Part shown: piece by piece, positions 9,514 through 62,205 of the stretch | Position numbering within the stretch: position 1 is the first letter of the stretch | Layout: each line of letters starts with the position of its first letter | Assembly: GCA_011049715.1 (NCBI GenBank) | Contig: DRHF01000057.1 | Location: forward strand, 797-64,796 | Direction: 5' to 3' | DNA length: 64,000 nucleotides | Source: Desulfobacterales bacterium | GTDB taxonomy: Bacteria; Desulfobacterota; Desulfobacteria; Desulfobacterales; UBA2156 | Position numbers and translations under genes: made by a program | Notes under the pieces: model-generated | The model's database searches: none | The model's input: the letters and a program-made list of their open reading frames with translations, nothing else | Told to the model about the DNA's origin: nothing

Positions 9514-9547
9514 AAGACAAGGGGGTCAGGTCTTCATTCTTCACTCT
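9514..9547 (+). repeat. 34-nt direct repeat, proximal copy (brackets potFGHI)
   Basis: AAGACAAGGGGGTCAGGTCTTCATTCTTCACTCT. 33/34 identical to 14187-14220. Confidence 0.9.
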
Positions 9548-10846: not shown

Positions 10847-11032
10847 GCCAGGTTAGGAATGAGATAAAAATAACTTAGAAAAGTTGGCGGAGACCGCTCC
10901 TTTGAATTTTTTACGATATTCAAGGCGCTTGATCGTTTGCGTAGCAGAGCTATGTGGGCGATTAAGTAACGAAGAAAATCGTAGAAAAGGCAAGCAAGTT
11001 TATCAAGTTATTTTTTGAACGTTCCTTAGTTC

Positions 11033-11064
11033 AAGTGCTGTCTTCGGACAGCACTTTTTTTTGC
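11033..11064 (+). terminator. intrinsic terminator/attenuator after potF
   Basis: AAGTGCTGTC-TTCG-GACAGCACTT (10-bp stem, UUCG loop) followed by TTTTTTGCG. Confidence 0.8.
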
Positions 11065-11102
11065 GTTAGTAAAAAGTAGATTAACGCTTCGGAGTACAAT
11101 CG

Positions 11103-12248: not shown

Positions 12249-13192
12249 TTGTTCAAAATTCCAGTAATGGCCTGGCACACATTTATCGTAGGTGGAGCAA
12301 TAAAATACAAGGCAGCTGGAAGCCCATCATAGTCACTATCCCCTACTTTTGGCTTCTCCTGTTTTTTCTTGCGCCCTTTTTTATTATCCTGAAAATAAGT
12401 CTGGCTGAATCCCTGATCGCCATCCCTCCATTTTCAGCATTATTGCAGTGGACCAGCGAGGGCGTACCACAGATTCAACTCGTTTTTGATAATTATTCTT
12501 ACCTATGGGAAGATGATCTTTATATTAAGACTTATTTAAATTCCTTAAGAATCTCAACGCTGTCCACTGTGATTTGCCTGCTCATTGGGTATCCCATCGC
12601 TTACCATATTGGAACGTCAACTCGGACCAAAAAAAATATTCTCTTGCTGATGGTTATTCTTCCATTTTGGACTTCGTTTCTTTTGCGTGTCTATGCCTGG
12701 ATGGGCTTACTGGCAGATCAAGGGACTATTAATGATATGCTAATCTGGTTGGGATTGATCGATGATCCCATCCGAATGATGTATTCGGAATTTGCGGTCT
12801 ACGTTGGCATTGTTTATTCCTACCTGCCTTTTATGATATTGCCCTTATATGCCAATATAGAAAAGTTGGACATGACTTTGAACGAGGCGGCGGCGGACTT
12901 AGGCGCCAAACCCTGGGTTACCTTTATCACCGTGACCTTGCCCTTGACTATCCCTGGAATAATTGCAGGTTCTTTATTAGTGTTCATACCCGCCACTGGA
13001 GAATTTATTATTCCCGACCTTTTGGGTGGCGGCAATGTGTTGATGATAGGAAGAGTATTATACAATGAGTTTAATTCCAACCATGATTGGCCCGTGGCCT
13101 CAGCAGTGGCCATCGCACTATTGCTGGCTCTGGTACTGCCTATGATGTGGTATCAGCACATTCAATCAAAACAAACAGATGCTGCATTATGA
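12245..13192 (+). CDS. potH: polyamine ABC transporter permease (PotB/PotH)
   Basis: ORF 12212..13192. I chose ATG 12245, which overlaps the potG stop (ATGA). EAA-loop block NEAAADLGAKPW. Confidence 0.85.
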   Translation: MIVQNSSNGLAHIYRRWSNKIQGSWKPIIVTIPYFWLLLFFLAPFFIILKISLAESLIAIPPFSALLQWTSEGVPQIQLVFDNYSYLWEDDLYIKTYLNSLRISTLSTVICLLIGYPIAYHIGTSTRTKKNILLLMVILPFWTSFLLRVYAWMGLLADQGTINDMLIWLGLIDDPIRMMYSEFAVYVGIVYSYLPFMILPLYANIEKLDMTLNEAAADLGAKPWVTFITVTLPLTIPGIIAGSLLVFIPATGEFIIPDLLGGGNVLMIGRVLYNEFNSNHDWPVASAVAIALLLALVLPMMWYQHIQSKQTDAAL

Positions 13193-14043
13193 AAAAGAAA
13201 CGGTTCAACTTTACTTTTTCTGTACTCTGCTTTGGCATGGCCTTTTTATATGTGCCAATGTTATCACTGATTATTTATTCCTTTAACTACTCTAAAATTG
13301 TGCCTATTTGGGGTGGTTTTTCCATTCGCTGGTATGTACGTCTATTTGAAAGTGAGGCGGTATGGGCGGCTGCCGGTTTAAGTCTGAGGATTGCCCTGGT
13401 GAACGCGACTTTTGCAACATTGATTGGAACCTTTGCAGCTTTGGCGATGGTACGTTTTGGAAAGTTTAAGGGTCGGACCTTATTTAGCGGCATGATTACA
13501 GCGCCCTTAGTGATGCCAGAAGTCATTACCGGACTTTCACTTCTACTACTGTTTATAACGCTAAAGGAATTTATAGGTTGGCCAGAATCCCGGGGATTCA
13601 CCACCATAACCATCGCACATATTACATTTTCCATGGCCTATGTGGCCGTCATAATACAATCACGCCTTGCAGGCATCGCTCTGACACTGGAGGAAGCGGC
13701 GGCGGACTTAGGCGCGAAACCTTTTCGTGTATTAATTGATATAACCTTCCCCTTGCTTGCGCCAGGAATGATTGCGGGATGGTTGCTGGCCTTTACTTTG
13801 TCGCTAGATGATCTCGTAATCGCTAGTTTTGTTTCTGGCCCAGGTTCTAATACTTTGCCTATACTGATTTATTCGCGCATTCGATTAGGCCTGCGTCCGG
13901 ATATTAATGCACTGGCTACCATCATTATTCTTGCCGTGACCATTGGCATGTGTATTGTCGGTTGGCTGATGCATCGTCAGCAGATACTGCGTGATCGTGA
14001 TTTACACATGGCTGGCATAGAAAATCAAAAGTTCGATATTTGA
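13189..14043 (+). CDS. potI: polyamine ABC transporter permease (PotC/PotI)
   Basis: ORF 13087..14043. ATG 13189 (MKKKRFNFTF...) overlaps the potH stop (ATGA). EAA-loop block EEAAADLGAKPF. Confidence 0.85.
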   Translation: MKKKRFNFTFSVLCFGMAFLYVPMLSLIIYSFNYSKIVPIWGGFSIRWYVRLFESEAVWAAAGLSLRIALVNATFATLIGTFAALAMVRFGKFKGRTLFSGMITAPLVMPEVITGLSLLLLFITLKEFIGWPESRGFTTITIAHITFSMAYVAVIIQSRLAGIALTLEEAAADLGAKPFRVLIDITFPLLAPGMIAGWLLAFTLSLDDLVIASFVSGPGSNTLPILIYSRIRLGLRPDINALATIIILAVTIGMCIVGWLMHRQQILRDRDLHMAGIENQKFDI

Positions 14044-14186: not shown

Positions 14187-14247
14187 AAGACAAGAGGGTC
14201 AGGTCTTCATTCTTCACTCTCCATTAAATTCTGTCAAGAATGAAGAC
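14187..14247 (+). repeat. 34-nt direct repeat, distal copy, extended into a perfect 12-bp hairpin
   Basis: AAGACAAGAGGGTCAGGTCTTCATTCTTCACTCT (14187-14220). Stem GTCTTCATTCTT (14203-14214) / AAGAATGAAGAC (14236-14247), 21-nt loop. Confidence 0.9.
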
Positions 14248-14755
14248 ATGGCCCCGATGGGTTCGGCCCTGTGGAATGCAGGGTCTATTCCTCCAGGGTC
14301 AGAGAAGAATCTTTTTTTCGTTGTACCAAACCGTGCTGCAGTCAAACAGACGAGTAACGGTTTTTCTCGCTTTTTTTTGTTAATGATGATAAGTGGACAT
14401 AACTACTTCAAGTTTTTTAAATAATGAAAAGTTAAAGGATCCAACAACCTGAGAATTAGAAGCGATTTAAAAAACTGACACAGACCCGAGTGCATTGTTT
14501 ATAGATAAAGGATGCCATGGAATGAACATAAGAACCCTATTTTTCAAATAGAGAGGCGGGGTTTTGTTGTTTTAGGCACGAAACCATAGGGTGACTTACA
14601 ACGAAGGGTAGAAGTCGGGAGCGGGGGAACCGTCACCTCGCAGACGACACACAATATACGGTGAAATTCGGTTACGGTCTGGTGAGGGTTTCCGGTGGGC
14701 TTCGGGCCACGGAATTGTCTTTACCGTGGACGCGCAAGGGGACACATTCCATTAA

Positions 14756-16297: not shown

Positions 16298-16628
16298 CCT
16301 GTCATTGGTTTTTATTCTCTGATGTAAGGATTGCTGTGGTTTTAAGCATCACAAAACTGGTGAAGGGGATTTCGATAAGTTGTACAATAAAAAATACTTG
16401 CTTATTATTCAGATTCCTCCATACAATTCGGTAAATATCAGTTCTGAAAATTTCTCTGGTTGGTCAGAAATTAAAAGAGCTTGCCGACGGCCTGAAAAAG
16501 TTCACAGAGGAAGCTGAAAAAAAAGAGGTAGGGATTCAGAGGTTCAGGGTTTGGGGTTCAAGATTGCTGATGCGGGAAAGGATGGGCGCTAACTATATTG
16601 GAAATGAGGGAAAAGAGGAGGCGGGAAC

Positions 16629-16938: not shown

Positions 16939-17172
16939 TTTTACAATTTCACGGGCACCGGTATACCCTATTGGGAAAACTCGTTGATCCCCTTCAAAGC
17001 CATTCGTCCTGATATATTCTTTCAGACGGTCTGCAACCTTTTTGGGAATTAACACAACCTCGGATTATCTTCCGCTTTTGGGGCTTTGCAAGAATAATTT
17101 CCGATCATCGACATCCTTTGCGCGAAGCTTGAGGGCTTCACCAATCCGCATCCCTCCTCTGCCCAGCAAAAC
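16939..17172 (-). pseudogene. tyrosine recombinase (phage-integrase family) fragment with internal stop
   Basis: Manual minus-strand translation: VLLGRGGMRIGEALKLRAKDVDDRKLFLQSPKSGR*SEVVLIPKKVADRLKEYIRTNGFEGDQRVFPIGYTGAREIVK. This is the TGxRxxE(A/L)L...K.....v.ip block of integrase catalytic domains. TAA at 17065-17067. It is 5'-truncated (TAG at 17173-17175) and 3'-truncated (no H-R-Y region). Confidence 0.6.
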
Positions 17173-17174
17173 CT

Positions 17175-17224
17175 AAAATGCGATAGGTTGCATGTATCTG
17201 TTAACATATATGCAATAATCTCAT
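17175..17224 (+). promoter_or_regulatory. about 50-nt conserved upstream block, copy 1 (promoter-like)
   Basis: AAAATGCGATAGGTTGCATGTATC...ATATATGCAATAATCTCAT. Roughly 80% identical by hand alignment to 18358-18407. Contains TTGCAT and an AATAAT/TATAAT-like hexamer. Confidence 0.4.
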
Positions 17225-17770: not shown

Positions 17771-18357
17771 TAATTTTGTAAACAACTTGTGATCTCCAAC
17801 TAATCCCCACAATCTAGCTGTCCCCCAGGATCTGAGATTGACAAAACATATCCCCACCATTATCTCTTCTCCAAAACCCGGGATATTCGTGTCGGTTTGG
17901 ATGAACAGATATAGAGCATTTAAAACTAAATACCAATCGCAGGAATATGTCTATAAAATGCACTATTCCTGATTCTCAAAAAGTGAGCAATGCCAAATAC
18001 ATTCCTCGGAAATCAAAGAAAAATCTCTTCAATCCCGATATTTCATTTTTGAGTCTCCAATTTTTCTATTTTTCTGACATTTGAATACGAATTCTATAGA
18101 ATACACATTGTAATAAGCACGGCGCACCCGGGGATATCACAGGTTTTCCTAACCCTGGTGATTATCTCAATTTACCACAGGTTTCCTATGTGTCTTAAAA
18201 CCTGATATATCTCCAACGATTCGGTATATATCAGTTCTGAAAATTCCTGAGATTTGATTTTAATCACAGGTTGATAGGGTGAATCTTATCGCATGGATTT
18301 GCCCTTTTTATTTGCCAAAACCCCCATTTTTCGGGACTATGGTTTGACAACAAATAC

Positions 18358-18407
18358 AAAAATGCAATAAGTTGCATGTATCAATTTGGTATATGCTATA
18401 ATTTCAT
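18358..18407 (+). promoter_or_regulatory. about 50-nt conserved upstream block, copy 2 (promoter-like)
   Basis: AAAATGCAATAAGTTGCATGTATC...GTATATGCTATAATTTCAT. TTGCAT (18372-18377) and TATAAT (18397-18402) have a 19-nt spacer. About 70 nt upstream of the PilZ gene ATG. Confidence 0.4.
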
Positions 18408-19070: not shown

Positions 19071-20282
19071 TCACCACCCAAAGTCCAGATGGGGCAAACC
19101 ATAACGCAAGCTCGCCATGTAATACTTTTCAAAGGCGATCTTCATCCAGTGCGCCCTCTTCCCCTTTTTGTGAACCAACTTATTGCGAGGCGGAAACAGA
19201 GGGCTTGCCGAAAGGTAAAACCCGGTGTCACCGGCATCGGCAATGCAAATAACCGAAAAATCTTTTCCCCGCTTTTTCGGACCCCCATTAATGTCCGCTG
19301 CGATATTGTGAGCCGCAACACCGGCCATCTCCGCGGACATCTGCCCTGTTTTTGGTACACCGACCGGCACCCGCGTTTCGAAGGGAGGGGGAAAGGCCAG
19401 AGACACACCAACCGCGTATACGTTTTGGTATTTGGGATTGGCCAGGTAATCGTCTCCAGGAATAAAACCACGTGGATTGGAAAGCCCCTCTATGCCGATG
19501 TATGCATGGCTGCCAAAAAAGGCCGGCACAATGAGGCTGAAATCGTTCTTTAATTTTTCTCCATCTTCCAGTTCCACATTTTCAGGTGTCACCTGTGCCA
19601 GTTTGCAGTTCACTTTCCATTCAACATCCCTGTCGGCGAATTCATCCTCAAGCATCCTCGTCATCATACCGAACCCGTTCACTCCGAAATGACCGAGATA
19701 CGGCTCGTTTGTGAACAAAGAAAGCTTGAACCTGTTTCGCAGCAGTTTCCTGCGCAGGTATGCATCCACCATCATTGCCATTTCATATACGGGACCAAGA
19801 CAGGACGCACCCTGTGCATTACCGAATACCAGTGAGCCGGACCCCTTGTCTATTGCGCCCATTAAGGCGTCTCTGGCATTAAGGGCTTCTTCAACGGAAA
19901 AAATTGAATAACTGTAACCTTTTTTAGGGCCCAGACCGGGTATGGCTTCAAAATCGAGTTCTGATCCGGTGGCCGCTATTAGGTAGTGGTACTCGTATTC
20001 TCCTTTTTCACCAATAACCCGATTGTTTTCCGGATCGGCCCTGACAATGGTGTCCTGAACAAAGTCTATACCTTTGCGACGTAAACTTCCGGCTACCGGA
20101 AACTGGATCGCAGAGGGTTTGCGCCAACCCATCACAACCCAAGGTAAAGATGGGATAAACGTGAATTCATTATCCGATGAAACCACTGTGATTGAATGTT
20201 CCCGGGAAAGGTGCTTTCGTAAATTTAGTGCCGAATGATATCCACCAAAGGATGAACCCAGAACAAGTATTTTTTCCCCCAT
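19071..20282 (-). CDS. sulfide:quinone oxidoreductase-like FAD-dependent oxidoreductase
   Basis: 403 aa. Rossmann N-terminus KILVLGSSFGGYHSA, a pyridine-nucleotide-disulfide oxidoreductase fold, and Cys residues in GASCLGPVYE and VICIADAGDTG as in SQR-type enzymes. Confidence 0.7.
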   Translation of the reverse strand: MGEKILVLGSSFGGYHSALNLRKHLSREHSITVVSSDNEFTFIPSLPWVVMGWRKPSAIQFPVAGSLRRKGIDFVQDTIVRADPENNRVIGEKGEYEYHYLIAATGSELDFEAIPGLGPKKGYSYSIFSVEEALNARDALMGAIDKGSGSLVFGNAQGASCLGPVYEMAMMVDAYLRRKLLRNRFKLSLFTNEPYLGHFGVNGFGMMTRMLEDEFADRDVEWKVNCKLAQVTPENVELEDGEKLKNDFSLIVPAFFGSHAYIGIEGLSNPRGFIPGDDYLANPKYQNVYAVGVSLAFPPPFETRVPVGVPKTGQMSAEMAGVAAHNIAADINGGPKKRGKDFSVICIADAGDTGFYLSASPLFPPRNKLVHKKGKRAHWMKIAFEKYYMASLRYGLPHLDFGW

Positions 20283-20308
20283 TGCATCCTCCTAATAAAG
20301 GCAAGTAC

Positions 20309-20361
20309 TCAAGTTTCACACCCCCAATGGGGCACGGTGCCGTATCTGGTGTGGGGTAAGC
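20309..20361 (-). repeat. R2 structured repeat, copy C (in the 5' leader of the SQR-like gene)
   Basis: Plus strand: CTCAAGTTTCACACCCCCAATGGGGCACGGTGCCGTATCTGGTGTGGGGTAAG. Homologous to 61019-61080. Its GGTGTGAAACTTGAG box (minus strand) ends 25 nt before the ATG at 20282. Confidence 0.7.
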
Positions 20362-20720
20362 AGTAGATCCTTAAAAGTTATTTTTGTGTATTTTGTGGCA
20401 AGAAAATTATATGAGAATATTTTTCCAATCTACTCATAATTGAATATTTTCGATTGAATATTGAATATTTAAGGTCCGCCTGCGGCGGATCAATTATAAA
20501 AATAACGATCATAAAAATGACGGAGCAACACGCGGCGCCTGCGCTGCGCGAGCGACATCCACAAATATTCAATTATCAGTATTCATTTTGGTTCCCCGAT
20601 AAATCGGGATTTCCGCTTCGCTGCAACCGGCTTGTCCGGGTTAGAACCGGTATCCATAAAGTAATCACCGTGCACAGGCACTCGATGGTCTGGTTTCTTT
20701 TGTAATATCAGTTGCTTCTG

Positions 20721-20846
20721 AAATGATAACTCTTAAAAGGTTTTGTGCCGTCGGCAAAGCGCTCATCATTAATTTTTTTCAGAAAAATTTCTTTTTACCC
20801 TATGCCTGATGCGACTTTCCTTAAAATATCAGGTGCAAAACTTGAG
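20721..20846 (+). repeat. R1 intergenic repeat (about 125 nt), copy 1
   Basis: About 94% identical by hand alignment (6 substitutions, one 1-nt indel) to 24531-24655. Ends in GGTGCAAAACTTGAG. Confidence 0.9.
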
Positions 20847-21269
20847 GTAAGCACTTTACCGAACAGTCATTTCCCATCGCCGTTTTCTATAGAAACATCT
20901 TTTTGAGACCAGATGAAGTGATTGAAAACAATTAAAAACAGGTAGCATTTATGCTATTTACAGTCAACATAAGAGAAATTTTGTGTAATGGATACCAAAT
21001 TGAAGAACCTCGCAGCCCTGTATGTCGGGATCTTCGCCGCGAATCGACAAGCTTCGGGAAATGCGCTCGCTGTTTGAGTTCAAATTGACATAGGCCCCTC
21101 ATAATTGCTTTTGACCCTTGTAATAAAAAAATGTATATAAATCGATTAAAGACCCCGATCTATTTCTGAAATGGGTTCAACCTATGATTTGCGGGTTTAG
21201 ATCGGCTTTAATCACAGGCAAAGGTTTGGCCCTGGATGCGCCTATAGATGAGTTAAAGGGAGGCATAAT

Positions 21270-21996: not shown

Positions 21997-23271
21997 ATGT
22001 CAAAATTGGTTCCACCCCATGGCGGGAAAGGGTTGGCCATCTGCCTGCTGGAGGGCGATGAACTGGCTACAGAAAAGCAAAAAGCGGTGGGATTAAAAAA
22101 AATAACCATCTCACAACGGGTGAAAGGTGATTTGATAATGATCGGTATCGGTGGATTCAGTCCACTGACCGGTTTTATGACGAAAGCCGATTGGAAACGC
22201 GTCTGCGAGGAGTTCCTGCTGGCTGATGGCACCTTCTGGCCGGTGCCGGTCACTTTGGATGTAGCCGGGAAAGAGGCGGTTACCGTCAGTGAAGGGGATG
22301 AAATTGCCTTATTCGATCCGAAGAACGACGAGACCATGGCCACAATGAAAGTCACTGAAAAGTTCAAGCTTACCGAAACGGACAAAAAATGGGAATGTGA
22401 AAAGGTCTTCATGGGTGAAGGAACCCCCACTAAAGATGAGTTTTGGAAAGTCGCAACGGAGGATCACCCGGGTGTCCGGATGGTCATGGACCAGGAGGAA
22501 TTCTACTTTGCCGGACCCGTCAAGGTTCTTAGTGAAGGGGAATACCCAACCAAATACGCCGGTGTCTACCATCGCCCGGCGGAATCCAGACAAATCTTTG
22601 AGGATAATGGCTGGAGCGATGTCGCCGCCCTGCAACTTAGAAATCCCATGCACCGCTCCCACGAATACCTCTGCAAAATCGCTGTCGAAGTATGCGATGG
22701 TGTCTACATCCACTCTCTGGTCGGCAACCTGAAGCCGGGCGACATCCCGGCTGAGGTCAGGGTAAAGTGCATCGATACCTTGGTGAAAAACTACTTCGTT
22801 GCGGCCAATGTCGTACAGGGCGGCTATCCGCTTGACATGAGATATGCCGGACCCAGAGAAGGTTTGCTACATGCAACTTTCCGGCAAAACTACGGCTGTT
22901 CCAAAATGATTATCGGCCGGGACCATGCCGGGGTGGGTGATTTCTACGGGATGTTCGAGGCACAGACAATCTTCGACAAAATCCCTAAGCCCGAACAACC
23001 CGGGCGGGCTTTGCTTTGCACACCGTTAAAGATCGACTGGACCTTCTATTGCTCTAAATGTGATGGAATGGCATCCCTTAGAACCTGCCCTCATGAAAAA
23101 GAAGACAGGATACTACTCAGCGGGACCATGCTGCGCAAGCTGCTTTCTGAGGGCGGCAAGATTCCGGATCACTTCGGTCGGGATGAAGTTCTGGTCATTC
23201 TTCGAGAGTATTACAAGGGTTTGACTGAAAAGGTTGAAATCAAGACCCACCGGGCGGCTACCGGCACCTGA
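21997..23271 (+). CDS. sat: sulfate adenylyltransferase (ATP sulfurylase)
   Basis: 424 aa with motifs [11 protein letters not shown] and [17 protein letters not shown]. Confidence 0.95.
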
Positions 23272-23368
23272 AACCCGGCAGGGTGCCAAATTTGTCAGCC
23301 TGTGCCGAATTTAAAGAAAAAGGGAGCCTGAAAACGGGTCTTTTTTTTAATCGGCAAAGCGTCAATCG

Positions 23369-24502
23369 TTACATTCTGCCCGTGTATTCGTTATAGGCAA
23401 GAGCGGTCGTACGGTATACCAGGTGTGCCAACATGGAAAACGGCGTGTAGGCAAATAGGCAAAAAACAAACATCAGATGGACAAAATAGATAAAATAGGA
23501 TAGTTCGCCCCATCCAGCCAGTCTTGTTATTTCCGTTAACATGCCCGAAAGACCCAAAGCCAGTGCTAGCCCCAGCAGGTACCAATCCTTATAAATAGAG
23601 AACTGGTCGGTTTTGACCAACCGATTTTTGATCATGAGGCTGCTGCCGACAATCAAGGCGACGCCACTGATATTGGCAAGCCATTTTACCGGGTTCAGCT
23701 GCGAATAGGGGCCGTGATTTTGAAAGCCATAAATGGCAAAAAAGAAAATACTGGTAACCATAAAAAGCCCGATAAATCCGAATAGAACCATCATGTGGGT
23801 CAGTTCACGGTCCTTGTTTTCAGAACAATCTGAAAACTTGGTATGTTTGAGAATAGTCGGAATCACACGGAAAAAAGCCAGGATAAATCCGGCGGGTTCG
23901 ATCTCTTTTTTCTCGGTTTTTCCCTCCATCAGTGCATTTTGATGGATATCCTTCAAAAAGCGTTTGAGACCCAATGCAAAAATGGCGACGGCCCAAAAAA
24001 CGGCCGGAATCATGACAAGATCGACCAGCCAGGTGGAAAAGAACTTGGCGTGTACAATTTCGTCTCCTTCCGGCGAAAAATTGAGCAAACCGGTCACGAG
24101 ACCCAGAACCAGGAATAAAATAGCGGGGATTGCCAACAAAATAGGCAAAAATTTCGGGTTATTTACTGCTTTTTCCAAGAATTTGGGGGCGGCGTATTCG
24201 GTAATGGCCAATGATCGGAGTGCCCCGAGAACATCCCCGGGTTTGGCACCGCGCGGGCAATTTGTGGTGCAATCGCCGCAATTGTGGCACAACCAGATAT
24301 CCGGGCTGCCAATCAATCTATCCTTCAGTCCCCATGATGCGGCAACCATTTCCTTTCTGGGAAAGGGTTTGTTGTCCGGAGAAATGGGACAGATGACCGA
24401 ACAGGTAGCGCATTGATAGCACTTTTTCAAATCTTCGCCGCCAAACGCGCCAATTTTTTTGATAAAATCTAAATCAGGTTCAATATGGTACCTCTGCGCC
24501 AT
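23369..24502 (-). CDS. qmoC: quinone-interacting membrane-bound oxidoreductase subunit C
   Basis: 377 aa. N-terminal HdrC-like motifs CYQCATCSVICP and CHNCGDCTTNCP, followed by a multi-TM haem-b (HdrE/NarI-like) domain. Last gene of the apr-qmo string. Confidence 0.9.
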   Translation of the reverse strand: MAQRYHIEPDLDFIKKIGAFGGEDLKKCYQCATCSVICPISPDNKPFPRKEMVAASWGLKDRLIGSPDIWLCHNCGDCTTNCPRGAKPGDVLGALRSLAITEYAAPKFLEKAVNNPKFLPILLAIPAILFLVLGLVTGLLNFSPEGDEIVHAKFFSTWLVDLVMIPAVFWAVAIFALGLKRFLKDIHQNALMEGKTEKKEIEPAGFILAFFRVIPTILKHTKFSDCSENKDRELTHMMVLFGFIGLFMVTSIFFFAIYGFQNHGPYSQLNPVKWLANISGVALIVGSSLMIKNRLVKTDQFSIYKDWYLLGLALALGLSGMLTEITRLAGWGELSYFIYFVHLMFVFCLFAYTPFSMLAHLVYRTTALAYNEYTGRM

Positions 24503-24530
24503 ATTTAGAGCTCCTATGACTACATTAAAA

Positions 24531-24655
24531 AATGATAACTCTTAAAAGGTTTTGTGCCGTTGTCAAAGCGCTCATCATCAATTTTTCCAGAAAAATTTCT
24601 TTTTACCCGATGCCTGATGCGACTTTCCTTAAAATATCAGGTGCGAAACTTGAGT
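24531..24655 (+). repeat. R1 intergenic repeat, copy 2 (between qmoB and qmoC, antisense to the operon)
   Basis: AAATGATAACTCTTAAAAGGTTTTGTGCCGTTGTCAAAGCGCTCATCATC...CCTTAAAATATCAGGTGCGAAACTTGAG. It accounts for most of the 201-nt qmoB-qmoC spacer. Confidence 0.9.
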
Positions 24656-24703
24656 AAAAACTCTGACTTAACCCAACGGTCCTCCATCGAAAATCTTCAA
24701 TTT

Positions 24704-26005
24704 CTAGAATCCTTTGAACGGGTTTGGACCCATTTCCTCTATACTGGCGACGAAATCATCAATGATCTGGGGAAGTTTATCATATTCATCGATCGTCACC
24801 TGGAATTGCATCACTCGCTCTTCTTCAAGGGCTAAGCTCGACAGAGCCTCACCGATCTTTTTCATCCTTACATCGGCGAGTTCGCTTCCTTTTACGAAGT
24901 GACACTGATAATCATCCCCGTGCTTGCACCCCAGAAGAAAAACCCCGTCCAGTCCCTGGGCGAGGGCATCTTTAATCCAAATCACGTTCACCGATCCAAG
25001 ACATCTAACCGCGATAATCCGGACATCCGCAGAATAGCTGAGCCGGTTCAGCCCCACAATATCAAGGGCCGGATAGGCGTCATTTTCGCAAACCAGGGCC
25101 AAAATCCTCAACGGTGGTTCATCATAATCGTCTTCGGATGGCACGCCGATGGCTTTGACCATCGACCCGATACTATCGATACTGTAATCGGAAAAGTTGA
25201 TAATCCGTTCGGGGCAGCACCCCAGGCAGGTGCCACAGCGTCGACAGCGGGTCGGATTTGACTTTGGTGTCGCCTTCTCATCATCATCGATCGCTCCGAA
25301 AGGACATTCTTCAGTACACCGTTTGCACTGGGTACATCTTTGGAAGAAAAAGTCAGGAAAGGTCATATCACCGGATCTCGGGTGAACGGAAACGCCGCGG
25401 TTGACCGACTCTGTGCACTGAATGGCTTTTAGCACCGCACCAGCGGCATCCTCAATTGATTCTTCCACAGTCATAGAGCGCCGAATGGCGCCGGCAGCAT
25501 AAATTCCGGTCCGCTGCGTTTCATAGGGGAAACAGATAAAATTCGAGTCGGCATATTCATCAAAAATCGCATTATCCCGGAACCCCGGACCCTGCCGGTA
25601 AGCCAGGTTGACCACCGGGTCATCTTTGGTGACCGGGACCATGCCGGTGGCCAGTACAGCCAAATCGGCTTTGACCTGAACTTTTTCACCCAGCAGGGTG
25701 TTGTCGGCTTCAACAATCAGGCCATCCTCACCTTTGGAGATGCCGGTCACCTCTCCTTTGGTCAGAAATATACCTTCGTCCTGCTGGATACCCGCATAAA
25801 AATATTCTGTGAGGCCGAGTGTGCGCATATGCTGATAGAAGACAAAGGCCTTGCCGTCAGGATAATCTTCCCTTACATACTTGGCCTGTTTGAGTGCCAC
25901 CAGGCTGGTTACTGCGCCGGTATACTGAAAGTCTTTATCATCCCCCTGACCCGGGCTTTGGATGAAGACCACTGATTTAGCTTCCTTTCCGTCAGACGGT
26001 CTCAC
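24704..26005 (-). CDS. qmoB: QmoB, C-terminal part (ferredoxin + MvhD-like domains), downstream of an in-frame TAA
   Basis: 433-aa ORF from GTG 26005, in the same frame as 26027..27040. CTQCKRCTEECP and CRRCGTCLGCCP ferredoxin motifs, and a C-terminal MvhD-like block LLGCKHGDDYQCHF. Confidence 0.85.
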   Translation of the reverse strand: MRPSDGKEAKSVVFIQSPGQGDDKDFQYTGAVTSLVALKQAKYVREDYPDGKAFVFYQHMRTLGLTEYFYAGIQQDEGIFLTKGEVTGISKGEDGLIVEADNTLLGEKVQVKADLAVLATGMVPVTKDDPVVNLAYRQGPGFRDNAIFDEYADSNFICFPYETQRTGIYAAGAIRRSMTVEESIEDAAGAVLKAIQCTESVNRGVSVHPRSGDMTFPDFFFQRCTQCKRCTEECPFGAIDDDEKATPKSNPTRCRRCGTCLGCCPERIINFSDYSIDSIGSMVKAIGVPSEDDYDEPPLRILALVCENDAYPALDIVGLNRLSYSADVRIIAVRCLGSVNVIWIKDALAQGLDGVFLLGCKHGDDYQCHFVKGSELADVRMKKIGEALSSLALEEERVMQFQVTIDEYDKLPQIIDDFVASIEEMGPNPFKGF

Positions 26006-26026
26006 GATTTTACCGCTATGGGCAAT

Positions 26027-27040
26027 TTACTCAAACTGGCTGTTGGTAACAACATCCGGAATCTCGCCAAAACCGAGATGAGCAAATTCCCCTTCTTCAG
26101 GCTGATACGGCCGCCACCCGGCGGCCAGAATGACGGCACCGAACAATTCGCCGTCAGGGTCAATTGTCAAGATATCCCGTCTGCCTTTATTGTATTCCAG
26201 GAACCTTTCATGGACTTTTTCGGCATCAAGCTCTTTGCCGTTTTCATCAAACTTCATTTCATCCGGCAATGGAAAAGGAACATCAAATTCTATCTTTTCA
26301 CCGGGTTTTTTAAATGTCACGGTAAATGCGCCCGGTTGACCGGCAATCCGCGCAACCACAGTATCGGTTTTGACTGTTATTCTGGAATAGTTTTTGAGTT
26401 CTTCTATCTTGGATTCGATGGTTGGCGGAATCAGGCTGTCAAATACGTAAGGTCCCGGCAACTGCTTGCGCCATCTTTTGGCATGGCCTCCCAATGCAGA
26501 CTCCTTTTCGACGATTGTCACATCATAACCCAACTTTGCCGCATCGATGGCCGCTGTGATTCCGGTGATGCCGCCGCCGATAACCAGTATTTTTCGGCTG
26601 AGCGTTTCAAGTTTATAAGGCTCGGGCAGATCAATTTTTTCTACTTTGGCCATGCCCATTCTCAGATAATCTTCTGCCATCATTTGAACGTGATCAATGA
26701 ACTCTTCATCGTCTTTTTGTTCTTCGGTGGGCGCCGGATATTTTGTCCTGGGATGGGACCAGACCACCTGTTCTCTCAGATTTACCCGATCGACTATACA
26801 GCCGTCAAACCGGAAGACATCATAAAGTACCCGGCGCGAACAGGCTGCTATCACCAAGGTATTGACGCTTTCGTCAGCGATATCCTTATTGAGGATCTCA
26901 AGGCCTTCTATACTGCACAGAATCGGGGAAGTTTTCACCGAAAACCCTTTTTCTTTAGGCACCTCGATCAGCTTTTCAATATCGAGGGCTTCACCGATCC
27001 CACAACCTTCGCAGATATAAACACCATACTTTTTGTCCAT
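26027..27040 (-). CDS. qmoB: QmoB, N-terminal HdrA-like FAD domain, ended by an in-frame TAA
   Basis: 337 aa. CEGCGIGE N-terminus, FAD fold ILVIGGGITGITAA. Ends ...VVTNSQFE-TAA(26027-26029), and the same frame continues IAHSGKIVRPSDGK.... Confidence 0.85.
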   Translation of the reverse strand: MDKKYGVYICEGCGIGEALDIEKLIEVPKEKGFSVKTSPILCSIEGLEILNKDIADESVNTLVIAACSRRVLYDVFRFDGCIVDRVNLREQVVWSHPRTKYPAPTEEQKDDEEFIDHVQMMAEDYLRMGMAKVEKIDLPEPYKLETLSRKILVIGGGITGITAAIDAAKLGYDVTIVEKESALGGHAKRWRKQLPGPYVFDSLIPPTIESKIEELKNYSRITVKTDTVVARIAGQPGAFTVTFKKPGEKIEFDVPFPLPDEMKFDENGKELDAEKVHERFLEYNKGRRDILTIDPDGELFGAVILAAGWRPYQPEEGEFAHLGFGEIPDVVTNSQFE

Positions 27041-27050
27041 GTTTATCTTC

Positions 27051-28328
27051 CTAACGATTCATCAGGGTCTGAATAGCCTTTAGGGCAATACCGGTGGCAT
27101 TCTGGTTTGATGAAAACACATCTCTTGGTTTGTTGGCGCATCCCGCAGCAAACATTCCGCCTTTTTCAAAATCATTCATGATGAAACCGTCCTCGGTATA
27201 ATTCAAATCAGCGGCAGGCTTAGCAGCAGCGGCTGTTGGTTGTATCCCGGTGGCCAGTACCGCCATTTCCACCGTCTGTTCGATCTTTTCAGCGGTTATG
27301 GCATTCTCGGCAACCACTGTGATATCTTTGGTCTCCGGATCTTCACTCACTTGGGCCACCTTCCCTTTAATAAAAAAGACATTTTCATCTGTTTTGATTT
27401 TGCTGTAAAATTTTTCATACCGCTGACCCGGCGCCCTGACGTCGATATAGAATATATAAACCTTGGCATCCGGATACCTTTCTCTGATATATGTCGTATG
27501 TTTCAAGGAAGCCATACAGCAGATATACGAACAATACGGCAAGTAATTCTCGTCCCTTGAGCCCGCGCATTGAACAAAGGCCACACTTTGCGGTGCTTTA
27601 TCATCCGAAGGCCGCAGAATCTTTCCGGCAGTCGGCCCGTTTGGCGATGCCATCCGTTCCAGCATCATGTTGGTCACAACATTCGGATATGTCCCAAACC
27701 CGAGATTGTTTATCTTCTTTGCATCGTACGGCTCCCATCCTGTTGCCCAGACAATGGCGCCAACTTTCAAGCGGATTGTCTTTGCCTGCATTTCAAGATC
27801 AATCGCATCGTATTTGCAGGCTTTCCAACATCGCTTGGCATCCTCGGTTCCGATGATCAGGGGAGAAAGCGCATATCGGGCGGGAAAAGCCATCTCAAAG
27901 GGAAGATAAGCCCCCTTCATCTTGTTCATGCCGAAATTGAAATCATTGGGGATTTCTGTTTCACATGCAGTGGCGCATTCGCCACAGCAGGTACAGTTTT
28001 CATTTACATATCTGGGAGTTAGCCTTACCGAAACATCATAGTTTCCGGGTGCGCCGTCAACACGTTCAATTTCACCCAAGGTAAAAACCTTTATCCGTGG
28101 ATTGTCCTTAATTCTCCTAAAATTTATCTCAAGGCCGCAAGTCGGGGGACACAACTTGGGAAAGTATTGATTCAACTGCGAAACTCTTCCACCCAGATAA
28201 GGATTTTTTTCAACCAAAAAGACTTCATATCCAACTTCAGCCGCTTCGAGGGTTGTGGTCAAACCGCTGATCCCTCCGCCGACAACCAAGATACTGCCAT
28301 TGGCAGAAAGTATGTTCCCTTCTGTCAT
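27051..28328 (-). CDS. qmoA: quinone-interacting membrane-bound oxidoreductase subunit A (HdrA-like flavoprotein)
   Basis: 425 aa. ILVVGGGISGLTTT FAD fold. VVTNMMLERMASPNGPTAGKILRPSD HdrA-type block. Confidence 0.9.
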   Translation of the reverse strand: MTEGNILSANGSILVVGGGISGLTTTLEAAEVGYEVFLVEKNPYLGGRVSQLNQYFPKLCPPTCGLEINFRRIKDNPRIKVFTLGEIERVDGAPGNYDVSVRLTPRYVNENCTCCGECATACETEIPNDFNFGMNKMKGAYLPFEMAFPARYALSPLIIGTEDAKRCWKACKYDAIDLEMQAKTIRLKVGAIVWATGWEPYDAKKINNLGFGTYPNVVTNMMLERMASPNGPTAGKILRPSDDKAPQSVAFVQCAGSRDENYLPYCSYICCMASLKHTTYIRERYPDAKVYIFYIDVRAPGQRYEKFYSKIKTDENVFFIKGKVAQVSEDPETKDITVVAENAITAEKIEQTVEMAVLATGIQPTAAAAKPAADLNYTEDGFIMNDFEKGGMFAAGCANKPRDVFSSNQNATGIALKAIQTLMNR

Positions 28329-28397
28329 CGCGATCCCTCCATGTGATAACGAGTAACATCTAAACGAGTTTTGACTCGATTAGCGTAACACCTCGCT

Positions 28398-28437
28398 TAA
28401 TAAAAACCTCCAAAAGTCAAAGGACACCTGGAGGTTT
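28398..28437 (-). terminator. intrinsic-terminator-like hairpin between aprA and qmoA
   Basis: Minus strand: AAACCTCCA-(16 nt)-TGGAGGTTT followed by TTATTAAG (U-rich), starting about 28 nt after the aprA stop. Confidence 0.6.
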
Positions 28438-28464
28438 ATCATGATTTACGCACTCTCGTGGATT

Positions 28465-30444
28465 TTAGTCCGAAATGATTTTGATGTAATCTTTTTTAAA
28501 AACATCCCACTTTCCGGTTTTCGGATCATACTTGGAGTTGCTGAAACAGAACCAGTTCTCGTCATCCGTGTTCGGATAGTCCATCTGATAATAGAATCCA
28601 GGATAACGGGTTTCCTTACGGAACTGGATATGACGTAGATGGGATTCAACGGTCCAGATACGGTGATAGATTTCCCATGCCCTCATCAGTTCGTGGAGGT
28701 CGCCGGCCGCCAGTTTCTCGCAGTCCTCCCGCATGCAGTGCAGGAGTTCCATGACGATCTCAAGATTTTTATTGTTGGTTGTATAGAATGTCGCCGTACC
28801 GGCGCCATACTCATTGGTGGCCTTCATCATGCGATACATCATCCCGTTGGGTTTGATGTAGTTGGGGTTAATGTCATCCGCCGTGGTGTACTCACAATGA
28901 TCAAGGTATACTCTGACCGGCCTATAGATCAAATCCACCAGTTCTTGACTGGTTTGATTAATACTCGGCGTGAAGTCGGCATGATCACGGGCGTATCTAA
29001 CCATTGATTTACCAGCCAGCCTTCCTTCGGTATGGGATCCGGAAGAAAACTTATGGCCCGAACAGCCCACACCATCTCCGGCCGTAAACAGTCCATTGAC
29101 CGTCGTCATACGGTTGTAAATCTTGCCGTTGTCTGCTTTGACCTTGTAAGCATCCGGGACCCAGTCATAGTCCGGCCCGGAAACCCAGAAGCCACAGCAG
29201 CCGGAATGGGATCCAAGCAGGTAGGGTTCTGTAGGCATCACTTCGGAATTCTTATTCTCCGGCTCGGTGTTGGTTGCACACCAGAGATTGGCCTGGCCGC
29301 AGGTCATGTCTAGAAAATCTTCCCAGGCTTCCGACTCTATATGCCTGAGCTCTCTCTTACTCAAACCCTCGCCCAGCTTTGCCATTGCTGAAACCGTATC
29401 CATTATGATGGGACCGCGACCTTCTTGCATTTCGAAAAGCATAAGGTGGTTTCGCAGACACGTTGGCGTGATGGCTGCGGTTCCATAAGGCGCATACTTT
29501 TCAAGTTCGGCCTTGGCGGCATCACTCTCCACATAAGACTCGCCCAGACCGTTGAGTGCCTTGGCCTTGAACAGCAGGAACCATGCCCCCACCGGCCCGT
29601 ATCCGTCTTTAAAACGGGCCGGGGTGAAACGGTTTTCCATCATGGAAAGCTCGGCCCCCACTTTCATCCCCAGGGTATAGGTGGAGCCGGAGTTCCATAC
29701 CGGATACCAGGCACGGCCCTTGCCCTCACCCACTGATCTGGGCTGATAGATGTTTACCGCGCCGCCGCAGGCAATAAGCATGCTTTTACATTTGATGATG
29801 TAAACCTTGTTTTCACGGACGGAAAAACCGACGGCGCCGGCGATTTGATTCTCCTTGTCGGCATCTAGGAGAAGCTCAACAATGAAAACACGTTCTAAAA
29901 TGTTATCTTCCCCGATGGAAAGCTTGGCCGCTTCTGCGACAATCCGTTTGTAGGACTCACCGTTGATCATGATTTGCCACTTGCCCGTGCGAACAGGGGC
30001 GGCGCCGGATTTTAGTGTTCCCATTGACTGGCCTTTTTTACCATCCAGATTTTTCCCCTCTTGAGTTTTTTTCCAGATCGGAAGCCCCCATTCCTCAAAC
30101 AGATGGACAGAATCATCGACATGACAACCCAGATCAAAGATCAGGTCTTCACGAACGATGCCCATCAGGTCGTTTCGAACCATTCGCACGTAATCGTCAG
30201 GCGTATTATCGCCAATATAGGTGTTGATAGCGGAAAGACCCTGGGCAACCGCACCGCTTCTCTCCATGGCGGCTTTATCAACAATCAGGATCGTCTGGTC
30301 ATCAGACATCCATTTCCTGACTTCAAAAGCAGCACCACAGGCAGCCATCCCTCCACCCACGATCAGCATATCGACCTCACGCTCCTCAACTTCGGGATCT
30401 CTCACAGTCTTGGTTTCGCCTTTTGGTCTATTTGGTAATGTCAT
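28465..30444 (-). CDS. aprA: adenylylsulfate (APS) reductase alpha subunit
   Basis: 659 aa. FAD fold DMLIVGGGMAACGAAFE, fumarate-reductase-like flavoprotein, directly downstream of aprB. Confidence 0.95.
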   Translation of the reverse strand: MTLPNRPKGETKTVRDPEVEEREVDMLIVGGGMAACGAAFEVRKWMSDDQTILIVDKAAMERSGAVAQGLSAINTYIGDNTPDDYVRMVRNDLMGIVREDLIFDLGCHVDDSVHLFEEWGLPIWKKTQEGKNLDGKKGQSMGTLKSGAAPVRTGKWQIMINGESYKRIVAEAAKLSIGEDNILERVFIVELLLDADKENQIAGAVGFSVRENKVYIIKCKSMLIACGGAVNIYQPRSVGEGKGRAWYPVWNSGSTYTLGMKVGAELSMMENRFTPARFKDGYGPVGAWFLLFKAKALNGLGESYVESDAAKAELEKYAPYGTAAITPTCLRNHLMLFEMQEGRGPIIMDTVSAMAKLGEGLSKRELRHIESEAWEDFLDMTCGQANLWCATNTEPENKNSEVMPTEPYLLGSHSGCCGFWVSGPDYDWVPDAYKVKADNGKIYNRMTTVNGLFTAGDGVGCSGHKFSSGSHTEGRLAGKSMVRYARDHADFTPSINQTSQELVDLIYRPVRVYLDHCEYTTADDINPNYIKPNGMMYRMMKATNEYGAGTATFYTTNNKNLEIVMELLHCMREDCEKLAAGDLHELMRAWEIYHRIWTVESHLRHIQFRKETRYPGFYYQMDYPNTDDENWFCFSNSKYDPKTGKWDVFKKDYIKIISD

Positions 30445-30512
30445 ATTACATCCTCCTTGAACAATATTTCATGCTTCAGCTCTCGACTACTTCAAAACAC
30501 AGCTTGATCGAA

Positions 30513-30950
30513 TTAAACCGTTGCAGCAGGCTTTGGGATTTCATATCCATCTGCCTCTTCTGTGGAAAGCAAACCACTCTCGAGGTCTTTTCCCTTCAGG
30601 TCCTGATAGGCGTTGGCGGTGCCTTCAGGTGTTGTCCGTATGGGGAACTTAAAACGTTTGATGTTTCCGTTCCTGAATTTGCAGGTCCACATGACGTCTT
30701 CTGTACCCAACATCGGCATGATGCTGCTTCCAAGCGGCACAAAGTCGGAATAACCCCTCACCTCGATGGCCTGGGTGGGACAGATTTTTACGCATGAAAA
30801 ACATTCCCAGCACTGATCAGGCTCTTGATTGTATGCCTTCATGGTATTGGCCTCAAGCACCATCAGATCGTTGGGGCAAATGTACATGCAAGCTGTCTTG
30901 TCTCCGCCTTTGCACCCGTCACATTTTTCATCGATCACAAAACTTGGCAT
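30513..30950 (-). CDS. aprB: adenylylsulfate (APS) reductase beta subunit
   Basis: 145 aa. MPSFVIDEKCDGCKGGDKTACMYICPNDLM and CWECFSCVKICP, the two [4Fe-4S] motifs typical of AprB. Confidence 0.95.
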   Translation of the reverse strand: MPSFVIDEKCDGCKGGDKTACMYICPNDLMVLEANTMKAYNQEPDQCWECFSCVKICPTQAIEVRGYSDFVPLGSSIMPMLGTEDVMWTCKFRNGNIKRFKFPIRTTPEGTANAYQDLKGKDLESGLLSTEEADGYEIPKPAATV

Positions 30951-38194: not shown

Positions 38195-38235
38195 TGCCGC
38201 TCTCCTTCATAATTTCTAGTTGTTCATATGCAACA

Positions 38236-38335
38236 CTAGTTTCGCACCTGATATTTTAAGGAAAGTTGCATCAGGCATAGGGTAAAAAGAAATTTTTCTG
38301 AAAAAAATTAATGATGAGCGCTTTGACAAACAAAA
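38236..38335 (-). repeat. R1 intergenic repeat, copy 3 (5'-truncated), directly upstream of the amidohydrolase gene
   Basis: The reverse complement reads TTTTGTTTGTCAAAGCGCTCATCATTAATTTTTTTCAGAAAAATTTCTTTTTACCCTATGCCTGATGCAACTTTCCTTAAAATATCAGGTGCGAAACTAG. The box ends about 40 nt before the ATG at 38194. Confidence 0.9.
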
Positions 38336-46297: not shown

Positions 46298-46524
46298 TTT
46301 ACCCTCCTTAGGATATCGAGCGATATCTATCAAAATTATAAATGGCTGCAATACCGGGTTCAATGGCCGATTTTGAAAAAACTGCTGATTTCATCCCCAC
46401 ACATAAATCCAGAAAACTCAACGATCGGTCAAATTACTAGGTAACTATATAATCCCAGTCTTAAAATATCAAGCTATAAACACTATTTTTGTTGGTTCTA
46501 TGTAAATAACATCGGTAGGCCTTC

Positions 46525-46613
46525 AAGTTTCTCCCCATTTATTTTACGAAGACCCGCTTTCGGCGTGGGCCGGATACAACTCTCCGGTGGATTGGAGGTG
46601 CGAAACTTAAATT
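46525..46613 (+). repeat. R2 structured repeat, copy A (complete imperfect palindrome) upstream of tRNA-Gly
   Basis: Left arm AAGTTTCTCCCCA (46525-46537), central GC hairpins (CCCGCTTTCGGCGTGGG; CCGGA..TCCGG), right arm TGGAGGTGCGAAACTTAAATT (46593-46613). Confidence 0.75.
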
Positions 46614-46682: not shown

Positions 46683-46758
46683 GCGGGCATAGCTCAGCTG
46701 GTAGAGTACAAGCTTCCCAAGCTTGGTGTCGCGAGTTCGAATCTCGTTGCCCGCTCCA
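46683..46758 (+). tRNA. tRNA-Gly (anticodon CCC)
   Basis: Hand-folded cloverleaf: acceptor GCGGGCA/TGCCCGC, D-arm GCTC/GAGT, anticodon stem CAAGC/GCTTG with loop TTCCCAA, T-arm GCGAG-TTCGAAT-CTCGT, discriminator U, encoded CCA. 76 nt. Confidence 0.95.
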
Positions 46759-61018: not shown

Positions 61019-61080
61019 AATTTAAGTTTCGCACCCCCAATCAATCGGAGCACCGCCTTCGGCGTGGGGCGAATAAAATC
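61019..61080 (-). repeat. R2 structured repeat, copy B
   Basis: Plus strand: AATTTAAGTTTCGCACCCCCAATCAATCGGAGCACCGCCTTCGGCGTGGGGCGAATAAAATC. The reverse complement carries GGGGGTGCGAAACTTAAATT, identical in its last 17 nt to copy A. Confidence 0.75.
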
Positions 61081-61143
61081 AAGAGAAATTCCTTCATTGC
61101 CATGCAATGATAAAAGCCATTTGAAAGAAAGGAGGAAAGATAA

Positions 61144-62205
61144 ATGAACGACCAGGACATCATATCTGTTGCCGCTGTACAGGCAGCTCCGGTTTTCCTC
61201 GACAAAGACGCCACCATCGAAAAGGCCTGCAGGCTCATTGCCGAGGCAGGTGAAAACGGTGCAAAACTCATTGTGTTCCCTGAAACCTTTATCCCGACTT
61301 TCCCTTATTGGAGCAATTATCATCCGGAAGGCCCCCCCTGGGCCCGTACTTTTACCAAGTTGTTCAAGAACTCGGTTGAAATTCCCAGTCCTGATACCGA
61401 TATCCTAGGACAAGCAGCCCGAAAAGCCGGCGCATATTTGGTCATGGGACTAAACGAGCGTGACCGGGTCTACGGTGGGACCCTGTACAATACACTGCTG
61501 TTCTTCGATCCGGAGGGACGCATTTTGGGCAAACATCGTAAACTGATGCCAACCCACCACGAACGACTTTTCTGGGGATTTGGAGACGGGTCAGGCTTGA
61601 ACGTATATCCAACTTCATTGGGTAAACTGGGTGGGCTCATCTGCTACGAACACCACATGACCCTCTCTAAATATGCGCTTTATGCCCAGGGAGAGCAGAT
61701 CCATTGTGGGGTCTGGCCGGGATGGCCCGGGAATCCGGACTACGACAATATCGATATAGTGCACACGGCCAGCCGCCAGTACGCTTTTGAGGGTCAGTGC
61801 TTTGTGATTTGCGCATGTGGCTGGATTCATCCTGACATGATCCCTGAAGATTTTGAGTTCAAAGATGAAATGGACTGCCGGAGCCGGGGTGGGACGACTA
61901 TCATCAGCCCCTTGGGGCATTTGGTGGCCGAACCGCTTCTGGATAAGGAGGGGATCGTCTATGCAAAATTGAAAATGGATCATATCATCAAGGCCAAAGC
62001 CTTTGTTGACTGTACCGGGCACTATGCGCGTTGGGATGTGTTAAATCTTAATTTTAACCGCCGTCCCAATCAAGCTATCGCCACCCCTCGCCGACCGGTC
62101 GAACTGCAACTGCGGGAAGAGCTGACAGAACTCCTGGCCCGGGCCAATACGCTCACCCACGAGGATCTCCTTGGTGAACTCCATCGATTGACGGGTGCAG
62201 ACTAG
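61144..62205 (+). CDS. nitrilase / carbon-nitrogen hydrolase family protein
   Basis: 353 aa. FPETF (Glu), HRKLMPT (Lys) and GGLICYEH (Cys) form the catalytic triad context. SD AAGGAGG. Confidence 0.85.
   Translation: MNDQDIISVAAVQAAPVFLDKDATIEKACRLIAEAGENGAKLIVFPETFIPTFPYWSNYHPEGPPWARTFTKLFKNSVEIPSPDTDILGQAARKAGAYLVMGLNERDRVYGGTLYNTLLFFDPEGRILGKHRKLMPTHHERLFWGFGDGSGLNVYPTSLGKLGGLICYEHHMTLSKYALYAQGEQIHCGVWPGWPGNPDYDNIDIVHTASRQYAFEGQCFVICACGWIHPDMIPEDFEFKDEMDCRSRGGTTIISPLGHLVAEPLLDKEGIVYAKLKMDHIIKAKAFVDCTGHYARWDVLNLNFNRRPNQAIATPRRPVELQLREELTELLARANTLTHEDLLGELHRLTGAD

Follow-up and report, generated by a model that had tools for sequence, protein, structure and literature searches.

Insertion sequences of the ISPepr1 subgroup of the IS4 family are 1500-1600 bp long, terminate in the consensus YT-AA-YTT---A with 5'-CT ends, encode a transposase with a complete YREK signature, prefer AT-rich targets and are flanked by 7-8-bp direct repeats (De Palmenaer, Siguier & Mahillon, 2008; PMC2266710). 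One member of the subgroup, ISTeha8, has been described in the genus Tetragenococcus (PMC10269466). Bacterial MITEs derived from insertion sequences (IS) have been reviewed (PMC10969869, PMC3184786); MIC231, which derives from IS231, is an example from the IS4 family. REP/BIME/REPIN elements are dispersed repeats of another kind: they have a conserved GTAG-type head, produce no target duplication and are tied to a Y1/HUH transposase (RAYT) (PMC2817692).

We analysed a 64-kb stretch of DNA (the window) in which the original prediction had recognized two sets of intergenic repeats, R1 and R2, ending in the same box. The pattern GGTGYRAAACT occurs seven times in the window, compared with 0.09 ± 0.29 expected from dinucleotide-preserving shuffles (a count of seven was reached by 0 of 100), and the box is therefore far commoner than composition predicts. 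The repeat is real and strongly non-random. Six of the seven occurrences are intergenic, with similarity extending past the box. The seventh, which had been missed in a total given as six, lies at 61258-61268 (+), reads GGTGCAAAACTC and falls within the nitrilase gene at 61144-62205 (Pfam CN_hydrolase); the sequences flanking the 11-mer are unlike those of the family, and the site was dropped as a chance match in coding sequence. All six sites listed originally are indeed intergenic, but some of their coordinates were 1-2 nt off and are corrected here to 24640-24654 and 38234-38248 (-). The R2 sequences were located correctly: the left arm of copy A, AAGTTTCTCCCCA, lies at 46525-46537 and its right arm extends to 46613, and copies B and C are present at 61019-61080 (-) and 20309-20361 (-). 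The distances to neighbouring genes were also borne out, the box ending 25 nt upstream of the ATG (20282) of an SQR-like gene (pyridine-nucleotide-disulphide oxidoreductase) and, in copy A, 69 nt upstream of tRNA-Gly(CCC) at 46683-46758.

R1 and R2 had been regarded as related elements with the box in common; they share far more than this. A repeat finder (family D2) aligned R1 with copy A at 70% identity across 40 nt, well past the box. By all-against-all BLAST and multiple alignment, the long copies of the family form a unit of 291-293 bp whose start, CTCAAGTTTCGCACCTGATATTTTAAGGAAAGTCGCATCAGGCATAGGGTAAAAAG..., is the reverse complement of R1 and whose end, ...TTTACCCCACACCAGATGCGGCACCGTGCCCCATTGGGGGTGCGAAACTTGAG, is R2 copy C. 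The outer G of each terminus marks the precise point at which the 292-bp copies cease to be similar. The non-autonomous unit of about 292 bp is bounded by CTCAAGTTTCGCACC...GGTGCGAAACTTGAG, and each terminus is followed by a subterminal segment of about 35 nt that is either of the left type (...CACCTGATATTTTAAGGAAAGTCGCATCAGG) or of the right type (...CACCCCCAATGGGGCACGGTGCCGCATCTGG). The shorter size classes keep both ends and have lost the interior, and the two termini were found at both ends in 69 unique copies. R1 and R2 are thus two ends, left and right, of the same non-autonomous transposon and not separate families; the box, 15 bp long, is the terminal inverted repeat of an insertion sequence belonging to the IS4 family. 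The suggestion that the box is a protein-recognition site agrees with this, the protein probably being a transposase that binds the terminal inverted repeat. The copies in the window are as follows.

20308..20846, minus strand: composite MITE copy of 539 bp, aligned with the 292-bp copies at loci L001, L028, L002, L036 and L013
20308-20361, minus strand: right-type end of the 539-bp copy (copy C)
20308..20322, minus strand: right-type terminal inverted repeat, GGTGTGAAACTTGAG, 25 nt upstream of the SQR-like ATG
20362-20650: unrelated repeat of about 289 bp nested in the 539-bp copy
about 20649-20846, minus strand: left-type end and interior of the 539-bp copy (R1 copy 1)
20832..20846, plus strand: left-type terminal inverted repeat of the 539-bp copy, GGTGCAAAACTTGAG
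24530..24654, minus strand: R1 copy 2, truncated left end of 125 bp, terminus at 24640-24654, without a second terminus
38234..38329, plus strand: R1 copy 3, truncated left end of 96 bp, without a second terminus
46522..46611, plus strand: copy A, short MITE of 90 bp, left end fused directly to right end
61021..61093, minus strand: copy B, decayed short MITE of about 73 bp, far boundary approximate

Copy C is not a complete element of 55 nt whose second arm has decayed, as had been described. The arm that belongs with it is R1 copy 1, 0.5 kb away, and the two point outward because both are termini of a single 539-bp insertion. This copy matches the copy at locus L182 at 94% across 198 nt and 90% across 52 nt (BLAST), and its flanks, GCAAGTA and GTAAGCA, agree at 5 of 7 positions. 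The same L182 copy matches R1 copy 2 at 95% across 126 nt and R1 copy 3 at 93% across 92 nt (BLAST). The latter, whose terminus is mutated to CACTAGTTTCGCACC, lies upstream of an M20 peptidase gene. Copy A lies upstream of the tRNA-Gly promoter region and has the same architecture as 18 other short copies in the alignment; its left terminus is decayed (TTCAAGTTTCTCCCC), its right terminus is strong (GGTGCGAAACTTAAA) and its flanks contain no recognizable target-site duplication. Copy B, between thiolase-like and nitrilase genes, retains a strong terminus at 61021-61035, and of its other terminus only GAGAAATT is left, at about 61083-61090. The interior similarity of B to A is weak (alignment score 3.5, compared with -6.0 ± 3.5 for shuffles).

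No perfect target-site duplication was found at any copy in the window (the best is the 5/7 match at the 539-bp copy, with none at A or B). Neither tblastn nor Pfam analysis of the larger ORFs (about 40) detected a transposase homologue in the window, and the Pfam matches were to housekeeping functions only. The mutated termini, the truncations, the nested insertion and the absence of perfect duplications indicate that the window copies are most probably fossils of old insertions, no longer mobile and tolerated between genes. The sequence of about 289 bp nested at 20362-20650 is a dispersed repeat in its own right, with 78-91% matches at unrelated metagenome loci (L238 2381-2629, L183 4574-4696, L202 and L161).

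The family extends well beyond the window. An 18-mer, ATTGGRGGTGYGAAACTT, was scanned against 185,579 genomes, one per species; no locus overlaps the window, whose own genome is absent from this set. The scan returned 44 loci, approximately 19 of them in Desulfobacterales MAGs (11 from Desulfobacteraceae bacterium UBA2156, three from uncultured Desulfobacter and several single matches). Most of the Desulfobacterales loci share sequence context far past the box. Singleton matches in other phyla lack the family context and are about as numerous as chance would give, the exception being L009, where a MAG labelled Cytophagia carries a 57-bp copy complete with both termini. When metagenomes were scanned with ATWKSRGGTGYGAAACTTGAG, a sequence that fits both end types, at least 120 loci were found. 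Among the matches listed, inward-facing pairs of termini fall into discrete sizes of 56-97, 116-117, 128-134, 148, 197-199 and 288-296 bp; the largest class comprises 24 copies, and the 117-bp and 198-bp classes each occur six times at unrelated loci. Of 197 boxes across the family, 15 (7.6%) fall within an open frame of 600 nt or longer, compared with 66% of positions drawn at random from the loci concerned, so the box is not equally frequent inside coding regions. At least some of these 15 are transposase ORFs that run into the terminus of a full-length element.

Perfect direct repeats flank many of the 69 unique copies: 12 have 7-bp and 13 have 6-bp repeats, whereas permuted flanks gave expectations of 0.27 and 0.57 respectively. 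These target-site duplications are AT-rich (TTATTTA, TAACTAA, TAAGTCA, TATTTGA, GACGTAA). In several of the 6-bp cases (L144, L174, L207 and L240) the terminus ends in ...CTTGAA instead of ...CTTGAG, consistent with a 7-bp duplication combined with a mutated last base. Short-read assemblies break inside the element at L046, L050, L018, L019 and L005. Such breaks inside or at copies, including those at L046 and L050, which come from the same population as the window, are the usual behaviour of a dispersed repeat. The organism of the window is the population present in marine-sediment run SRR1555744 (ERZ940452) and in SRR7787409, and the window copies are present in all of the same-strain contigs L045, L047, L048 and L049. 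Among the fetched loci, all of them chosen for carrying the box, sites are filled, or filled at another length, and none is empty; movement of the element is accordingly inferred, not observed. The 292-bp consensus had no blastn match in 72,556 plasmids. A 15-mer scan of viral contigs gave 85 loci, essentially all with unrelated context and hence chance matches; one alone (L116) has a short left-type-like lead-in. As a side observation, L031, from an 'uncultured Nitrospina sp.' bin, and L034, from Desulfobacteraceae UBA2156, are 100% identical across 2818 nt, which is most likely an artefact of binning or co-assembly of the public MAGs.

Among the matches listed from metagenome contigs, outside the window's own genome, the family's termini also enclose three complete elements of about 1.6 kb: L227 471-2071 (1601 bp), L220 5252-6843 (1592 bp) and L225 98-1682 (1585 bp). 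Each contains one long ORF. The ORF of L227 encodes a protein of 483 aa, for which the NCBIfam model NF049925 'IS4 family transposase' gave 332.9 bits (cut-off 250) and in which Pfam recognized DDE_5 and DDE_Tnp_1. By tblastn we identified a fourth, nearly complete transposase copy at L176 and fragments at L247, L173 and L014. The transposase copies (four compared) are 51-58% identical to that of L227. D131/D132, D237 and E366 are invariant in all four, as is the intact YREK signature, Y359-x2-R362-x3-E366-x6-K373. The ORF stops inside the terminal repeat, GGG TGC GAA ACT TGA encoding G-C-E-T-stop (L227 472-486, and likewise in L220 and L225). One terminus, in which GGGTGCGAAACTTGA encodes these residues, is thus under both coding and transposase-binding constraint. 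DNA similarity between the full-length elements and the MITE is confined to approximately 21-26 nt at each terminus, so the true parent copy is not among the elements recovered. Among 80 ORFs within ± 4 kb of 19 Desulfobacterales copies, Pfam revealed no recurrent transposase. Three other arrangements of inverted boxes were rejected as larger transposons. The L021 pair (4.2 kb) encloses host ECF sigma, anti-sigma, cysteine synthase and nitrilase genes; the L190 and L188 pairs (3.6 kb) enclose host DNA with a DinG-like helicase and an HD protein; and the L139 pair (7.6 kb) encloses housekeeping genes. In each case host DNA simply lies between two separate copies.

The full-length elements resemble the ISPepr1 subgroup closely. 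Their length of 1585-1601 bp lies within the published range, and their termini, CTCAAGTTTCGCA, begin with 5'-CT and fit the end consensus at 8 of 8 specified positions. They have a single transposase ORF with the DDE residues and the complete Y(2)R(3)E(6)K motif, and the family's duplications of 7 bp at AT-rich targets match the published 7-8 bp. By every feature compared, the parent IS would appear to belong to this subgroup, an assignment that uses end consensus, size, duplication length and YREK and not a phylogeny of reference transposases. The window differs in carrying transposase-less derivatives alone. A relative with 32% identity on a Desulfolutivibrio plasmid has the termini CTCGACTTTCGG and an 8-bp duplication, TTACTTGA, so that this type of end persists across deep divergence; Tetragenococcus plasmids are also among the tblastn matches.

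The miniature copies likewise share the properties of IS-derived MITEs: they are 56-296 bp long, have inverted termini in common with an autonomous IS, and are flanked by target-site duplications. They are also multicopy, intergenic and without coding capacity, and occur in discrete deletion classes. Unlike MIC231, which carries passenger genes, the family here has none. A literature search, including a full-text search for the terminus sequence, found no paper on this Desulfobacteraceae MITE family or its terminus. An IS-derived MITE is a thoroughly known kind of element, and the family appears undescribed. The original prediction did not recognize the repeat as a described motif; this holds for the MITE family itself, but the type of terminus is the described ISPepr1 end consensus.

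We therefore consider it very likely that the elements are non-autonomous IS4-family derivatives, comprising MITEs, internally deleted MITEs and truncated solo ends. Tn5 and Tn10, which belong to the IS4 family, transpose by cut-and-paste via a hairpin intermediate and serve as a model for the mechanism here. By analogy, a transposase supplied in trans from a full-length copy would bind the termini of approximately 15-21 bp and excise the element by cut-and-paste through a hairpin intermediate. Insertion at a 7-bp staggered cut, followed by repair, would then generate the target-site duplication. Miniature copies could be mobilized in trans by the same transposase.

A different history for the window copies, in which they never moved as miniature units and are instead a full-length IS or a 292-bp MITE eroded in place, is the alternative that survives best, and we regard it as unlikely. 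In its favour, R1 copies 2 and 3 have a single terminus each and B is strongly decayed. Orthologous sites (flanks 87-96% identical) are occupied by elements of unequal length: L214 3543-3834 (292 bp) corresponds to L184 3830-3946 (117 bp), and L245 10515-10807 (293 bp) corresponds to copies of about 91 bp at L136 and L152. Internal deletion therefore also happens in place. However, copies of one and the same size class occur at unrelated loci, and each has a duplication of its own, a pattern that erosion alone cannot explain. Copy A is 76% identical, ungapped, to a 90-bp copy at L007 2387-2476 (Desulfobacteraceae UBA2156), and 43 of 60 interior positions are the same (72%; alignment score 26, compared with -5.9 ± 3.4 for shuffles). 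As L007 represents another locus and another genome, this similarity indicates that the 90-bp form spread as a unit. Erosion in place holds for some copies; it refines the account of individual copies and is no alternative for the family.

The window also contains, at 21997-30950, the core cluster for dissimilatory sulfate reduction.

21997-23271: sat
23369-24502, minus strand: qmoC-like
26027-27040 and 24704-26005, minus strand: qmoB-like, two ORFs
27051-28328, minus strand: qmoA-like
28465-30444, minus strand: aprA-like
30513-30950, minus strand: aprB

The MITE left-end fragment 24530-24654 (R1 copy 2) occupies the spacer between the qmoB-like and qmoC-like genes of the aprBA-qmoABC cluster, 28 nt upstream of the ATG at 24502. 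Judging from their positions, some copies might have been co-opted by the host, namely the right end in front of the SQR-like gene and the left-end fragment between qmoB and qmoC; we think this improbable. If it were true, the co-opted pieces could act as promoters or processing sites or contribute structure to the 5'-UTR, and the expression of sulfur-metabolism genes would be tied to mobile-element sequence. Neither promoter prediction in the ends nor the folding analysis lent this reading support. Separately, we note that the qmoB/HdrA-like frame is split by a single in-frame TAA at 26027-26029 (-), ...NSQFE*IAHSGKIVRPSDG.... Selenocysteine was rejected as an explanation because the stop codon is TAA and not TGA; the split could be a nonsense mutation, a sequencing error or a genuinely split gene.

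We place little credence in the proposal that the box is a cis-regulatory or RNA motif, that is, a host transcription- or sigma-factor site (GAAAC resembles an ECF -35 element), a structured 5'-leader or a small RNA. It derives some appeal from the box lying, at the SQR-like, M20 peptidase and qmoC genes (the last with a fragment), 25-45 nt ahead of the start codon in gene sense, and from the conservation of 21 nt, ATTGGGGGTGCGAAACTTGAG, even in otherwise diverged copies. However, B, R1 copy 2 (relative to qmoB) and L021 lie downstream of a neighbouring gene or in antisense to it, the copies keep no constant orientation or distance relative to genes, and the neighbouring genes are functionally unrelated. 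Recognition by the transposase accounts for the conserved box, together with the coding of the transposase C-terminus (G-C-E-T-stop) at one end. Promoter prediction gave no sigma-70-like site in the ends of the element. Rfam gave no match to the element: at the gathering threshold only tRNA was found in the whole window, and at E ≤ 5 the region 20200-20950 returned nothing credible (one noise match). The copies had been described as structured and palindromic, but single-strand folding of A, B and C is not above that of shuffles (z-scores of -0.03, -0.13 and -0.64; range -0.03 to -1.3 over the sequences folded). Base pairing in copy A is confined to the terminal 7-nt arms, and the central hairpins attributed to it cannot be told apart from shuffled sequence in thermodynamic terms.

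We attach even less weight to REP/REPIN-type elements, inverted palindromic pairs moved as single-stranded DNA by RAYT, an IS200/IS605-like Y1/HUH transposase. The elements do resemble REP/BIME/REPIN sequences in being short, GC-rich and intergenic inverted pairs of a conserved unit, with a short subterminal stem at each end (CCTGAT...ATCAGG or CCAGATG...CATTGGG) and no transposase adjoining the copies. They differ in their flanking direct repeats of 6-7 bp, which are far above expectation and which HUH/Y1 transposition does not make; these duplications come close to refuting the REP/RAYT explanation. In addition, the same termini bound the 1.6-kb elements that encode a DDE transposase, a conserved GTAG-type head is absent, and folding of the window copies is no better than that of shuffles. 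Both a RAYT/IS200-IS605-type and another transposase had been envisaged as the mobilizing enzyme: the partner found is the DDE transposase in metagenome contigs, and no Y1_Tnp or RAYT was detected in the window or among the recurrent neighbours of the copies. The original prediction was therefore right that one family of MITE-like elements with common termini is present, but its REP, RAYT and IS200/IS605 suggestion was wrong, given the duplications and the IS4-family DDE partner.

Further identities were rejected: a solitary CRISPR repeat (type I-C-like, ...ATTGAAAC) on account of loose resemblance and no array, an integron attC because the R'/R'' cores do not fit, an ECF -35 element because the RBS spacing is impossible and the box in L021 is directed away from the ECF sigma gene, an IS5-type terminus (GGAAGGTGCGAA) because of its opposite orientation, and an IS91 CTTG target because the ends are symmetric and duplications are present.

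With the repeats assigned to IS4-family MITEs, Desulfobacteraceae now have a defined MITE family that had no name before, together with its partner of IS4/ISPepr1 type. The assignment accounts for intergenic repeats that would otherwise count as candidate regulatory or RNA motifs, and it explains why short-read assemblies of these organisms break at element positions. The 21-bp terminus can be used as a marker for repeat masking, for scaffolding of MAGs and for insertion-site strain typing of marine-sediment sulfate reducers. The copy in the apr-qmo cluster and the copy abutting the sqr start are candidates for MITE effects on sulfur-gene expression.

Other features of the window were recorded in passing. 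A 34-nt repeat, AAGACAAG(G/A)GGGTCAGGTCTTCATTCTTCACTCT, 97% identical and with an inverted partner, occurs at 9514-9547, 14187-14220 and 14222-14265, flanking both sides of an ABC-transporter operon (9731-14043); it may be a further family of small repeats or two paired regulatory sites. Direct-repeat pairs of 33-35 nt are found at 16423-16455 and 18216-18248 (91%) and at 17164-17198 and 18348-18382 (83%). Their position upstream of small ORFs (16.4-18.7 kb) suggests duplicated promoter/operator regions. A gene for a PIN-domain protein (VapC-like toxin) is located at 7830-8228 (-), in a gene-poor stretch between an IclR regulator and the ABC-transporter operon.
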